Assembly (NCBI GenBank): GCA_027623315.1
Contig: JAQBYD010000002.1
Location: forward strand, 52,140-116,139
Reading direction: 5' to 3'
DNA: 64,000 nucleotides
Origin: Verrucomicrobiota bacterium
Lineage (GTDB): Bacteria > Verrucomicrobiota > Kiritimatiellia > CAJWTS01
Part shown: positions 13,012 to 15,942 of the stretch, one piece after another
Layout of the letters: every line of letters begins with the position of its first letter
How positions within the stretch are numbered: the stretch's first letter is position 1
The notes under the pieces: model-generated
Database searches by the model: none
What the model saw: the letters and a program-made list of their open reading frames with translations, nothing else
What the model was told of the DNA's origin: nothing
Position numbers and translations under genes: made by a program

Positions 13012-14103
13012 ATGAGCTGTACGATAGATCCGATTTCGTTCCGGGGGCGGCCGGCGATCGCAATCACGAATGGCGTCGTGGAACTCGTCGTCTTGACCGG
13101 GGGCGGGCACCTCGCAGCGTTCAAGATGGTCGAGCAGGGGATCAACGTCCTCTGGGAACCACACTGGTCAACCATCGAACCGAGCATGCGCAATCTCGGC
13201 ATCCCGGGCGAGTTCGACGACTCGCTCGAGAGCAAACTCCTCTCGAGCCTTCTGGGGCACAACCTGTGCCTCGACGTGTTCGGTGAGCAGAGCCAGGGCG
13301 AGTCCGATGCCGGCCTGACCTTTCACGGTGAAGCTGGAATGGTCACCTGGGAAGTGGATTCGGCCGAGGTCTCCTCGTCGAGCGCAACGCTGACCCTCAC
13401 GGCGTTCCTTCGACAGAGCGCCCTTGAAGTCTCCAGGATGATCACCTTGAAGGCCGGTGAAGCCTCGCTGCGTGTACGGGAATCGGTTCGCAACCTCGTA
13501 GGGTTTGAAAGAGTCTACGGCTGCGCCGAGCACGCCACGCTTGGGGAGTCTTTCCTGAAGGATAGTCCGGCGCTGTTCGCGTGCAATGCCGACAAGGGAA
13601 TCACCTGGCCGACCGGCGCTGAGCTGTCAACGCTGTCCGCTAACACCGAGTTCGACTATCCCGATCTTCCGCTCGCGGCCGGCGGCACGACCGACTGGCG
13701 CTCCTACCCGCGCGCCTACGAGGAGGGGAACCTGTTCACCATGCGCATCCGCCCCGGCGATTCCTCCGGCTGGTTCACCGCTGTCCAGAATAGGCTCAAG
13801 CTCGGCGTCTACTACGTGTGGGAGCGCGAAGCCTTTCCCTGGTTGATGACCTGGGAGGAGGCCTACAATCGGAAAGCCCTGCCATGGGGCCAGGGCGAGT
13901 TGACGCGCGGCATGGAGTTCTCATCCTACCCCTTCGCGCTCAGCCGGCGCGACAATGTCGCCATCGGAGAACTGCTCGGCGTCCCGGCTTTCCAGTGGCT
14001 GGATGCGCACGAGACGCGCAGCACCGAATTCACGATGGGCCTATTCCCCACGGATGACGACGTCACCGAGGCTCCACCGGCGTCAGAATTCTGCGCGCTG
14101 TAA
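13012..14103 (+). CDS. Hypothetical protein, possibly aldose-epimerase-like beta-sandwich (DUF4432-like)
   Basis: Start moved to the Met at 13012, preceded by the SD-like AGGAGG at about 13000-13005. No catalytic motifs recognised. The last codons and stop lie in an intergenic repeat. Confidence 0.4.
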   Translation: MSCTIDPISFRGRPAIAITNGVVELVVLTGGGHLAAFKMVEQGINVLWEPHWSTIEPSMRNLGIPGEFDDSLESKLLSSLLGHNLCLDVFGEQSQGESDAGLTFHGEAGMVTWEVDSAEVSSSSATLTLTAFLRQSALEVSRMITLKAGEASLRVRESVRNLVGFERVYGCAEHATLGESFLKDSPALFACNADKGITWPTGAELSTLSANTEFDYPDLPLAAGGTTDWRSYPRAYEEGNLFTMRIRPGDSSGWFTAVQNRLKLGVYYVWEREAFPWLMTWEEAYNRKALPWGQGELTRGMEFSSYPFALSRRDNVAIGELLGVPAFQWLDAHETRSTEFTMGLFPTDDDVTEAPPASEFCAL

Positions 14104-14190
14104 ATTCGTGGGCACCAACTCTTCGTCCAGCGGTTCAACTTTCTTCCCACTACATTCGAGTCAGTCGTGCGATTCGTGGTTTCCCCTGCT
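14103..14190. repeat. Short intergenic repeat, family A copy 1 (contains the CGTGATTCGTGG core)
   Basis: aattcgtgggcaccaactcttcgtccagcggttcaactttcttcccactacattcgagtcagtcgtgcgattcgtggtttcccc. About 93% identical to 23014-23108. Spans the stop of ORF 13012..14103 and the last codons plus stop of metXW. Confidence 0.8.
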
Positions 14191-15942
14191 GATTCGCACG
14201 AAGATACGATCGGCGCCGAGATTTCTCAGGCCAATGCCCAGTAACAGGCGACCGATCGCGTTGTCGGCAGTGCACTCGATATCGAGAATATCGATTCCCT
14301 CCTGTCGGCATAGCTCGACGAAGTCCTTCAACGTGGCAAGGTGAATGTTCGGCGTATTGTGCCACTCGAACGGCAGGCTCTTCGATATCGGCATGCGACC
14401 CATCACTCCGAGGTAGAGGCGGTGTGACCATCGACCAAAGTTGGGGAACGTCACGATTCCCTCCTTGGCCACGCGCAGCATCTCGCGCAATACGTGACGA
14501 GGCCGATGCACCACCTGCAGCGTCTGGCTCAGGATCGCGTAGTCGTATGCCTGGTCTGCGACCATCGCCAACCCTTCATCCACGTCGCACTGGATCGCCT
14601 TGCGGCCACGCTCGACGACATTGATGATGTTCTTGAGATCGATGTCGACGCCGAGCGCGTCCACGCCATGCTCGCGCACGAGGTGGTGGATCAGGGCGCC
14701 ATCTCCACAACCGAGATCGATCACTCGCGAGCCGGGCGCGATGAACCCGGCGATAAACTCGTGGTTCTCCGCTTCCGAATCCGATGGCACGTGCGGCGAA
14801 GCCGCGGAGTCGTTGTCTTCCGAGTCGGCGCCGAGGAACGTGCTCACCACGTCCGCCAGGTGCTCAATGTCGACCAGGAACGCGTCGTGGCCGTATGGCG
14901 CCTGCAGGATGCAATAGGAGATCCGCCGGCCGCCTTTAAGAAGTGCGGTCGATAACTCGATGGATTGCTCGGGTGGAAAGAGCCAGTCCGAGCTCAATGC
15001 GACGACCAGGAATCGAGACTTCACCTGGTTCATCGCCGCCTCGACCGTCCCGTACTGCTCCTCCACATCGTAGGAATCCATCGCATTCGTGATGCGCAGA
15101 TAGGAGTTGGCGTCGAAACGGTCGACGAATTTGTTTCCCTGGTACTCCAGGTAGCTCTCCACCTGGAAGCGGCTGTCGTCTTCGCGGCGTTCGCGGCCGA
15201 ACTTGGAGGTCATGACCTCGGGTGAGAGATAGGTGATGTGGCCGATCATGCGCGCCTGCGCCAGGCCGGGCCCGGGCCGCTGAGCGGAGTCATAGTAGTC
15301 TCCGCCTTGCCAGTCCGGGTCGGACTCAATCGCATTGCGCCCCACGATATCAAAGGCCAGCGCCTGCGCAGACAAACGCATCGTCGATGCGATGCATACG
15401 CAGCGTTCAACCATCTCGCCGTATCGAATTCCCCACTCGAGGGCCTGCATTCCGCCCATGGAGCCCCCGATCACGGCGCGCAGGGATGTAATGCCGAGAT
15501 GCAGCAGAAGCAGGCGGTGCACGTCCACAATATCGCCGACGGTGATCTCCGGGAAGGTGGAGCCATAAGCCTTGCCGGTGTCGGGGTCCGTCGAGCCGGG
15601 GCCTGTCGTGCCCTTGCAGCCCCCGAGGATATTGGCGCACACCACGAAGTAGCGATTGGTGTCCAGACCGCGGCCCGGACCAATCATATCGTCCCACCAG
15701 CCCGGTGACTTGTCGTCCGCATGATGCCGCCCCGCGGCATGCGCATCCCCGGTCAAAGCGTGGCATACGAAAATGACGTTATCTTTGGCCTCCGACAGCT
15801 CGCCGTAGCTTTCGTACGCCACGCACAGATCTTTGAGTGCCCGGCCACACTCCAGCAGAAGACCCTCGGCCGGCAGGGCGATCTCAACGCTGTGGGCCTC
15901 TACGACGCCGACCCCCTGGTTGTCCGTGGATTGTGCAGTCAC
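14161..15942 (-). CDS. metXW: Homoserine O-acetyltransferase MetX fused in one frame to methionine-biosynthesis protein MetW
   Basis: N-terminal about 370 aa MetX alpha/beta hydrolase (…HALTGDAH…, GGSMGGMQALEW nucleophile elbow) continues through a D/S-rich linker into a MetW-like segment (VIDLGCGDGALIHHL…ILSQTLQVVHRPRHVLREMLRVAKEGIVTFPNFG…) without a stop. The last about 10 codons and stop are encoded by the 14103-14190 repeat. Confidence 0.8.
   Translation of the reverse strand: MTAQSTDNQGVGVVEAHSVEIALPAEGLLLECGRALKDLCVAYESYGELSEAKDNVIFVCHALTGDAHAAGRHHADDKSPGWWDDMIGPGRGLDTNRYFVVCANILGGCKGTTGPGSTDPDTGKAYGSTFPEITVGDIVDVHRLLLLHLGITSLRAVIGGSMGGMQALEWGIRYGEMVERCVCIASTMRLSAQALAFDIVGRNAIESDPDWQGGDYYDSAQRPGPGLAQARMIGHITYLSPEVMTSKFGRERREDDSRFQVESYLEYQGNKFVDRFDANSYLRITNAMDSYDVEEQYGTVEAAMNQVKSRFLVVALSSDWLFPPEQSIELSTALLKGGRRISYCILQAPYGHDAFLVDIEHLADVVSTFLGADSEDNDSAASPHVPSDSEAENHEFIAGFIAPGSRVIDLGCGDGALIHHLVREHGVDALGVDIDLKNIINVVERGRKAIQCDVDEGLAMVADQAYDYAILSQTLQVVHRPRHVLREMLRVAKEGIVTFPNFGRWSHRLYLGVMGRMPISKSLPFEWHNTPNIHLATLKDFVELCRQEGIDILDIECTADNAIGRLLLGIGLRNLGADRIFVRISRGNHESHD

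Follow-up and report, generated by a model that had tools for sequence, protein, structure and literature searches.

Gene organization of the metXW locus

The DNA analyzed here, referred to as the window, is a stretch of 64,000 nt from a Verrucomicrobiota bacterium. It contains metXW, a minus-strand gene in which MetX and MetW are encoded together, and a convergent neighbor; a copy of a repeat lies between the two genes and reaches into the last codons of metXW. The genes and domains are listed below, with the basis of each assignment in parentheses.

13012-14103, plus strand: convergent gene, encoding a DUF4432-like protein of 363 aa when started at the ATG at 13012 (weak PF14486 match)
14161-15942, minus strand: metXW, fused MetX-MetW in a single 593-aa ORF with a GTG start (ORF list, Pfam and NCBIfam matches)
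14818-15879, minus strand: MetX alpha/beta-hydrolase domain, residues 22-375 (NF001209, invariant columns, Foldseek)
14779-14829, minus strand: D/S-rich inter-domain linker, about residues 372-388 (sequence, pLDDT)
14185-14778, minus strand: MetW domain, about residues 389-586 (PF07021, TIGR02081, AlphaFold2 secondary structure)
14161-14184, minus strand: repeat-derived tail, G587 (ambiguous), N, H, E, S, H, D and TGA (boundaries of homology with the relative L011 and with repeat copy B)

The N-terminal part of the product belongs to the MetX family according to the NCBIfam profile NF001209 (498.9 bits, cut-off 331, residues 22-375). The scores for TIGR01392 (450.6, cut-off 500) and for the succinyl 'exception' model (446, cut-off 560) stay below threshold, and the model scores favor an acetyl-specific over a succinyl-specific MetX domain, as far as profile matches can indicate. 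Ser161, Asp319 and His352, which we take to be the Ser-Asp-His catalytic triad of MetX, are invariant in 64/64 aligned fused homologues, as is the GxSxG nucleophile motif (G159-G-S161-M-G163). The MetW part is matched over residues 392-556 by PF07021 (198.8 bits, cut-off 21; Pfam) and TIGR02081 (212.2 bits, cut-off 189.5; NCBIfam), with additional weak matches to generic methyltransferase families in Pfam. Its motif I reads VIDLGCGDG, with D409, G411 and C412 invariant in the 64-homologue alignment. HMMER left the final ~30 positions of the MetW profile unaligned; the C-terminal strand ...NLGADRIFVRISR is nonetheless conserved among the fused homologues.

An AlphaFold2 model of the fused protein (pTM 0.89, mean pLDDT 87.6) displays an alternating strand-helix pattern in the MetW part, indicative of a class I SAM-methyltransferase-like fold whose last beta-strand spans residues 579-586 (RIFVRISR), and suggests that the two predicted domains adopt a fixed mutual arrangement. 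Between them, the linker GADSEDNDSAASPHVPSDSEAENHE runs in frame; its sequence varies among relatives yet remains in frame, and residues 371-390 have pLDDT values of 62-70. The extreme C-terminus (residues 590-593) falls below 50. In Foldseek comparisons, the MetX domain superposes on the crystal structures of MetX from Leptospira interrogans (2pl5), Haemophilus influenzae (2b61) and M. tuberculosis (6pux and 7ryt), with target-normalised TM-scores of 0.88-0.94 (0.89-0.93 for 2pl5/2b61) at 39-48% identity. Structure searches, including Foldseek, found no solved structure covering MetW or the MetX-MetW pair.

Distribution of the fusion and relation to known MetX and MetW proteins

A first-pass annotation had described metX and metW as fused without an intervening stop, and the 593-aa ORF with both domain profiles above their cut-offs bears this out. 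Its presentation of the fusion as unusual does not survive comparison with metX/metW loci of relatives. The fused architecture with both domains is present in 120/120 best homologues (577-638 aa), and among the top 150 clusters formed at 50% identity, at least 32 span the junction, down to ~40% identity. Verrucomicrobia, Lentisphaerae, Kiritimatiellia and Phycisphaerae (MBI9016850.1 for the latter) all have named fused members. On these sequence comparisons, the MetX-MetW fusion is the standard architecture in the clade and across PVC phyla and not a local novelty; it is old and common to these phyla.

The same data bear on the possibility that metX and metW are in fact two genes, joined artificially by a frameshift or an assembly error within the linker. 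Such an artefact would be in line with the low complexity of the linker and with the adjacent, separate genes described for Pseudomonas and Acinetobacter (PMC2290942). However, at least three contigs of separate sources encode this protein: its 593 aa are identical on a JGI contig, and on two further contigs (NCBI, Logan and ENA; named Verrucomicrobiota) they differ just in the letter written for the start codon, V or M. This contradicts a sequencing error in the linker. The Verrucomicrobiota MAG entries for the window's protein include MDA0321142.1 and MDA1085574.1. An in-frame linker with both domains is also found in relatives at 95%, 86% and 67% identity. Together with the 120 best matches and the clusters covering the junction, these observations leave an artefactual fusion with practically no probability.

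Fused entries named 'homoserine O-acetyltransferase' in MAGs of Verrucomicrobiota, Lentisphaerae, Kiritimatiellia and Phycisphaerae share the architecture at 40-100% identity, and the protein of the window differs from other fused MetX-MetW entries only in its 6-7-residue C-terminal tail. The UniProt name 'Bifunctional methionine biosynthesis protein MetXA/MetW' is presumably also in use for such fusions. A literature search for a described MetX-MetW fusion found nothing relevant.

Judging from family membership, the N-terminal domain would use acetyl-CoA to acetylate L-homoserine and so carry out the first committed step of methionine synthesis. This step involves the same two protein families in Pseudomonas putida, P. 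syringae and Acinetobacter baylyi ADP1 (PMC2290942); there, they are encoded by two adjacent genes, whereas the window and the sampled PVC clade have one polypeptide with an acidic linker of 15-25 residues. In organisms with separate genes, both metX and metW are required in vivo for homoserine acylation, and A. baylyi metW mutants are methionine auxotrophs that metX overexpression rescues (PMC2290942). This rescue suggests that MetW acts on MetX. In metXW, the linkage of MetW to MetX is covalent, within one ORF, and a MetW domain tethered by the short acidic linker would act on MetX directly, perhaps as a SAM-sensing or stabilizing partner.

The repeat at the 3' end of metXW

Repeat copies in the window were compared by pairwise affine-gap alignments. 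They are listed without strand, again with the basis of each assignment in parentheses.

14104-14184: repeat copy A ('family A'), 81 nt, overlapping the last codons of metXW (alignment with copy B)
23010-23105: repeat copy B, full-length and non-coding, between cysH and cysD (alignment)
10810-10889: diverged copy C, ~74-76% identity, which overlaps a MOSC-domain ORF (10870..11424, minus strand) at its stop (alignment)
16071-16103: CACGAAT arm, reading GCCCACGAATCACGCGAAT on the minus strand, in the distal part of the region upstream of metXW (arm matches)

Positions 14104-14169 match 23031-23096 with 94% identity over 66 nt (E about 1e-19), and the match extends to 14184 once a 9-nt indel is admitted. 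Compared with copy B, copy A carries one additional 9-nt unit (CGCACGACT) and is missing another; on the minus strand it consists of a degenerate CACGAAT/CTCGAAT module, a 33-nt spacer and a single GGTGCCCACGAAT arm. Copy B is flanked by the cysH stop (23198) and the cysD start (22866) and would read GNHE-stop in the metXW frame. Family-A copies sit at three gene ends of the window, in which arm matches number 5 against 0.04 expected. The arm at 16071-16103 is missing from the 95% relative.

The part of metXW taken from the repeat (14161-14184) is delimited by the point at which homology with L011 stops and homology with copy B starts. It had been proposed that about 10 codons and the stop derive from the repeat; the stop and the terminal residues do, and the extent shrinks to about 6-7 codons, outside the fold. 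In 92 homologues, 0-35 residues follow the V[RK]I[STA][RK] motif (most commonly 1) without conservation, and neither NHE nor HES follows it in any of the 92. The NHESHD tail is unique among 120 homologues and confined to the window's protein cluster. L011 and L012, whose metXW products fall into the window's 90%-identity cluster and which are termed ~95% relatives after the identity of the neighboring gene product, end in ...RISKGSGG-stop, and L001 (86% identical) ends in ...NGSLG-stop. The GSGG tail is present in two independent samples. The tail codons are GGG TCC GGA GGG TAG in L011 and GGA TCC CTT GGC TAG in L001. Since the two share the GSxG end, G-S-x-G-stop is probably ancestral and the tail in the window derived. 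L011 and L012 are without the 5' two-thirds of the repeat and retain GGTGCCCACGAATCACGCGAAT adjoining the stop of the neighboring gene, and no CACGAAT repeat is present in the 86 nt downstream of the L001 stop. As the closest relatives have neither that repeat segment nor those residues, a repeat event appears to have rewritten the 3' end of metXW.

The convergent gene was not affected in this way, in spite of the earlier suggestion that the repeat had remodelled both gene ends and supplied both stops. The metXW TGA does lie in the repeat. The TAA of the convergent gene (14101-14103) merely abuts it, the strict match starting at 14104, and aligns with a TAA of copy B only given a 9-nt gap. Homologues of the convergent product at 95, 79 and 66-67% identity (P0121-P0123) are all 363 aa long and end at the same column, the end being ...EFCAL-stop in the window and ...EFCSL-stop in the 95% relative; in the 79% relative, the stop position is identical and the downstream sequence different.

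Several other accounts of the metXW end can be weighed against this one. The first-pass annotation itself had raised the possibility that the 'repeat' is simply the conserved gene end, with the likeness to 23031-23105 being coincidental or due to a gene fragment there, and the coding overlap is indeed just 24 nt. This is extremely improbable: the aligned MetW C-termini of the two closest relatives differ from the window, the tail occurs in no homologue, and no relative was found that ends in ...GNHESHD-stop and lacks a downstream repeat. Moreover, 57 of the 81 nt matching copy B are intergenic at metXW, copy B is non-coding and related copies exist at other loci. An alternative with a somewhat better claim, though still improbable, is that this site carried the long repeat ancestrally, that the 95% relative deleted its 5' part and that the window preserves the old state. 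L011 does retain the 3' arm, perhaps with ~12 nt more (CTGGAATATTGGGTG vs CTGGGCGAAGAGTTGGTG), and repeat units expand and contract at this site; against this, the L011 tail codons match the outgroup L001 and not the repeat, and L001 is devoid of the repeat past its stop. The polarity is drawn from two relatives and short alignments, and a deletion in the L011 lineage together with chance convergence on GS.G could, strictly speaking, still produce the same pattern.

It is also very unlikely that the tail or the repeat has been recruited for a function, be it as a His/Asp tail that binds metal, as a shared regulatory element at the 3' end or as a terminator for the two convergent genes. Such a role could be read into the His- and acid-rich composition of the tail (NHESHD), the placement of family copies at three gene ends and the very stable hairpins that the wider family often forms in predicted folds. 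However, copy A has one arm and is no more stably folded than shuffled sequence (z = 0.66 and 1.25), a terminator and promoter scan of 13800-16300 returned nothing between the convergent genes and no terminator-like site, and the tail is limited to the window's protein cluster and predicted to be disordered. None of the three family-A copies, folded on both strands, gave a structure beating shuffled sequence.

For a derived repeat tail, the following course can be envisaged. The ancestral metXW would have ended in ...V-R-I-S-K/R-G-S-x-G-stop, with a short spacer that already bore one CACGAAT-element arm adjoining the stop of the convergent gene. In the lineage of the window, a longer family copy resembling 23010-23105 would then have taken the place of the stop and the three codons before it, probably through recombination or gene conversion, with the shared GGTGCCCACGAAT arm as the anchor, or through fresh insertion. 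Translation would run into the repeat, where CCACGAAT reads N-H-E, the additional 9-nt unit would contribute S-H-D in frame, and the TGA would come from the repeat's own ...AATGACTCGAAT. The two 9-nt indels (one gain, one loss) would fit slippage between 9-nt-spaced CNCGAAT units. No target-site duplication is evident at the repeat junctions in the alignments with L011 and copy B, nor was a donor junction identified. Because the tail lies beyond the last MetW beta-strand, at a naturally variable position, the change is almost certainly neutral; a weak effect of the His- and acid-rich residues would still be compatible with the sequence. Overall, metXW is very probably a normal, functional fused gene of Verrucomicrobiota, altered locally by the repeat at its 3' end only, and neutrally so.

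The wider CACGAAT family and implications

The repeat is part of a larger, widely distributed family whose members, the CACGAAT elements, are mostly palindromic. Metagenomes contain at least 120 such loci, and blastn also located relatives of family A at other loci. The GCCCACGAATCACGCGAAT arms appear usually to be paired as putative 60-120-nt hairpins, and the longer 'family A' form exists besides. An inverted partner lies at most 250 nt downstream in 54/95 distinct contexts, and the 12 closest-spaced arm pairs fold at -25 to -50 kcal/mol, unlike the single-armed copy A. A stop-to-stop ORF classification of repeat positions was uninformative, as the contigs are GC-rich. A metagenome scan with CTTCCCACTACATTCGAGTC gave 0 matches, in a collection that evidently does not include this organism. 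In a genome contig scan, 7 single matches to ATTCGTGNGCANCAANTCTTCG in unrelated Bacteroidota and Anaerolineae genomes were judged to be chance. At gathering thresholds, Rfam recovered RNase P only in the whole window, and at E up to 1 there was no match in 13900-16400 or 22850-23210; these negatives indicate that the region upstream of metXW harbors no known riboswitch and that the repeat does not belong to a known RNA family. The CACGAAT repeat motif was not found in the searched literature.

As short, multi-copy, intergenic elements, these repeats resemble REP/BIME of enterobacteria, Correia elements of Neisseria and MITEs, which are non-autonomous, often palindromic and may overlap gene ends. 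They differ from them in sequence family (CNCGAAT units, GCCCACGAATCACGCGAAT arms) and in having no Rfam match. The metXW copy lies between convergent genes, provides a few terminal codons and a stop, and is not palindromic, unlike a typical REP or MITE. The family appears to be abundant in Verrucomicrobiota of soil and sea. It is conceivable, although short of probable, that CACGAAT-unit elements form an undescribed REP/MITE-like family that turns over between ~95% strains and repeatedly rewrites gene 3' ends, of which the metXW tail may be one caught example.

Public databases already contain many proteins of the fused architecture, including that of the window itself, and the locus adds little to methionine biochemistry. 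The tail is a clean, polarised, small case of intergenic repeats making new C-termini and stops at unconstrained gene ends and is useful as an annotation caveat; the palindromic repeat family, the more interesting by-product, may merit a description of its own. For MetW, the fusion offers Rosetta-stone support for the genetic inference of a direct action on MetX. Because MetW has no solved structure, the fused protein is a natural single-chain construct for structural work, and an ancient fusion with a confidently packed, predicted two-domain model could help to work out how MetW affects MetX.

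Domains and distribution of the MetX-MetW fusion

The first-pass annotation of metX and metW as a single ORF is borne out by the linker GADSEDNDSAASPHVPSDSEAENHE, which is in frame, and by profile matches to both domains: the MetX model NF001209 covers residues 22-375 (499 bits, cut-off 331) and MetW covers residues 392-556 (PF07021, 199 bits; TIGR02081, 212 bits, cut-off 189.5).

The metXW gene and its cluster
14161-15942, minus strand: metXW ORF, 593 aa, GTG start
about 16123-24407, minus strand: sulfur-assimilation cluster, in the order Rrf2-family regulator, cysH-like PAPS reductase, cysD, cysN/C fusion, Cys/Met PLP enzyme, ThiS/ThiF/JAB proteins (sulfur-carrier system) and cysK, followed by metXW as the last gene

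Across an alignment of 64 fused homologues, no variation is seen at G159-x-S161-x-G163, D319 and H352, which comprise the Ser-Asp-His triad of MetX, or at D409, G411 and C412 of the glycine-rich MetW motif VIDLGCGDG. The AlphaFold2 model generated from this alignment is confident (mean pLDDT 87.6, pTM 0.89), with lower confidence for the linker. Its last beta-strand comprises residues 579-586, and residues 590-593 have a pLDDT below 50. Solved structures (2pl5, 2b61 and others) align to the MetX half only, and no MetW structure was found in the PDB copy searched.

An identical protein is encoded by a JGI metagenome contig (L002), which equals the window sequence wherever compared, and by two more contigs (NCBI, Logan, ENA; MDA0321142.1 and MDA1085574.1, labelled 'Verrucomicrobiota bacterium'). 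Both domains are present in 120/120 best database matches (577-638 aa), whose named sources include Lentisphaerae, Kiritimatiellia and Verrucomicrobia. Among the 150 top clusters of a 50%-identity library, 32 have a match across the junction between MetX and MetW, with identities as low as about 40%; one of them is Phycisphaerae MBI9016850.1. Therefore, the fusion is neither lineage-specific nor a product of sequencing error in the linker, the latter being ruled out by the identical protein on other contigs and the fused homologues. Judged from these matches, it is old and common, and the standard form in the PVC group. It is already in public data many times, this exact protein included, under the plain name 'homoserine O-acetyltransferase'.

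Repeat family A and the 3' end of metXW

Family A copies and the convergent gene
10810-10889: copy C, diverged, about 74-76% identity
13012-14103, plus strand: convergent DUF4432-like ORF, 363 aa
14104-14184: copy A, at the metXW end
23010-23105: copy B, in the non-coding cysH-cysD spacer

Positions 14104-14169 and 23031-23096 are 94% identical, and the match between copies A and B extends to 14184 when one 9-nt indel is allowed. On the minus strand, the element presents a first module, GGAAACCACGAAT(+/-CGCACGACT)GACTCGAATGTAGTGGG, a 33-nt spacer and a second module, GGTGCCCACGAAT(+/-CACGCGAAT)..., and is therefore made of CNCGAAT units about 9 nt apart. Relative to copy B, copy A has an additional unit in the first module and is one unit short in the second, which looks like slippage. 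No significant fold was obtained for either strand of copy A, no terminator-like site was found between metXW and the convergent gene, and the repeat has no Rfam match. Copy C overlaps the stop codon (10870-10872) of a MOSC-domain ORF (10870-11424, minus strand), which may be a second gene end inside a family A repeat.

The metXW C-terminus is conserved among homologues as far as ...NLGA[DE]R..V[RK]I[STA][RK]. Beyond this motif, 92 homologues carry 0-35 unconserved residues, most commonly one, and NHE or HES follows it in none of them; the window's tail is thus not a conserved gene end. Codon for codon, it is read from the repeat (AAC CAC GAA / TCG CAC GAC / TGA). Copy B would read GNHE-stop in the metXW frame, so the extra 9-nt unit of copy A adds SHD in frame. 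The repeat gives metXW 6-7 codons and the stop; the proposal that the last residues and stop are repeat-derived holds, with fewer codons than the roughly 10 first counted. These codons lie past the folded domain.

A close relative is represented in three metagenomes (L011, L012 and L013; the whole convergent pair on L011, the end of metXW on L012). Its DUF4432-like protein has 95% identity to that of the window, and its metXW product falls in the window's 90%-identity cluster. In L011 and L012, metXW ends ...VRISKGSGG-stop, with the convergent stops 34 nt apart. The L011 spacer holds GGTGCCCACGAATCACGCGAAT, adjoining the TAG of the DUF4432-like gene; of the repeat, L011 thus has the 3' arm and lacks the 5' two-thirds. 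Homology between the window and L011 extends through ...ATCAGCA(A/G)GGG and ends exactly where copy-B homology starts (14184). In the 86% relative (L001), metXW ends ...NGSLG-stop, with GGA TCC CTT GGC TAG aligning to GGG TCC GGA GGG TAG of L011; no CACGAAT repeat occurs in the 86 nt 3' of its stop, past which the contig terminates in a different, inverted CGCAGAG-type repeat. The agreement of the two tails argues for G-S-x-G-stop as the ancestral end and G-N-H-E-S-H-D-stop as derived, and makes the opposite polarity unlikely.

The suggestion that the repeat also remodelled the convergent gene end found no support. DUF4432-like homologues at 95, 79 and 66-67% identity all have the window protein's length (363 aa) and share its last alignment column (...EFCAL-stop in the window, ...EFCSL-stop in the closest relative); the protein end is unchanged. 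The stop triplet lies at the repeat edge and matches a TAA of copy B only with a 9-nt gap. The gene of the 79% relative stops at this position too; the sequence that follows is different and carries a CACGAAT-like arm in opposite orientation.

Repeat turnover and the wider CACGAAT family

Repeat-bearing segments on both metXW flanks differ between the window and the 95% relative; repeat elements therefore turn over quickly. About 95 nt of the proximal metXW leader are kept (window 15943 to about 16037, minus strand; L011 3079 to about 3170), and the distal part is replaced. This proximal region, in which no Rfam riboswitch was matched, may serve as promoter, operator or leader. Both contigs of the 86% relative break in an inverted CACGCAGAGGCGCAGAGACGCAGAG repeat (L001 3560-3632, L014 1352-1415) between the convergent metXW and DUF4432-like genes, and a CGCAGAG-type repeat of similar kind adjoins copy B in the window (23113-23150). 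The metXW/DUF4432-like spacer is a hotspot of repeat turnover.

Mosaic intergenic repeats at 31458-31685 and 40222-40431 have modules in common with the distal part of the region upstream of metXW (16029-16105), and GAATACAGACAGAGATAGAACCGCGG is shared in inverted orientation. Segments 31469-31629 and 40224-40390 are 87-93% identical, and a hairpin with a perfect 22-nt stem lies at 31549-31595.

The 18-mer GCCCACGAATCACGCGAA, an arm of the wider family, occurs in at least 120 metagenome loci, which by contig identifiers appear to be mostly soil and some marine. Among the matches listed, an inverted partner lies within 250 nt downstream in 54 of 95 distinct contexts and upstream in 4, with a median spacer of 50 nt; the 12 closest-spaced pairs form hairpins of -25 to -50 kcal/mol. 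Arms of the form GCCCACGAATCACGCGAAT(nnn)CGCGAAT make up a very widespread, in most cases palindromic element with 60-120-nt hairpins. The window contains 5 arms (0.04 expected).

CACGAAT arms and additional window features
16081-16099, minus strand: arm
22927-22945, plus strand: arm
23022-23040, minus strand: arm
31464-31482, plus strand: arm
31657-31675, minus strand: arm
641-1037, plus strand: bacterial RNase P RNA, class A, 220.8 bits
48158-48293: heptamer array TCCTGAC x19.6, 86% matches, abutting the stop of ORF 48295-50121 (minus strand); candidate for length variation at a gene end
54252-54344: perfect heptamer array CCTGACA x13.3, ending 1 nt before the ATG at 54346; candidate for length variation at a gene start

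Full family-A-like copies (about 70-80% identity) are found at several 18-mer loci and elsewhere in the contig of the 86% relative. No paper on the arm motif was found in the literature library searched, and the element has no Rfam match; tentatively, the CACGAAT elements might constitute an undescribed REP/MITE-like family of Verrucomicrobiota. Some arms lie directly 5' of small ORFs starting M(A/T)EI..K.ESYAI (L079, about 1255-1330, L101 and L133; L035 and L067; L071 and L089), and arms could flank small multi-copy gene cassettes.

Origin of the tail and meaning of the fusion

The window's tail and stop are repeat sequence, its relatives share another tail, the 3' arm is already in the closest relative and the number of 9-nt units varies between copies. 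A longer family member would have replaced the final three codons and the stop of the ancestral gene, either by a new insertion or by recombination or gene conversion with the shared arm as anchor, and the change would have been tolerated because the position is unconstrained. Alternatively, the long repeat would be ancestral and L011 would have lost part of it, which is improbable given the tail of the outgroup L001. The initial observation is confirmed, and its interpretation partly supported. Intergenic repeats that overlap gene ends are known already, and the repeat-derived tail adds a small, probably neutral case.

In work on Pseudomonas and Acinetobacter, metX and metW are separate, adjacent genes, whereas in the window they form one ORF. 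In those bacteria, metW mutants are methionine auxotrophs rescued by metX overexpression (PMC2290942). The fusion is consistent with the idea that MetW acts directly on MetX.
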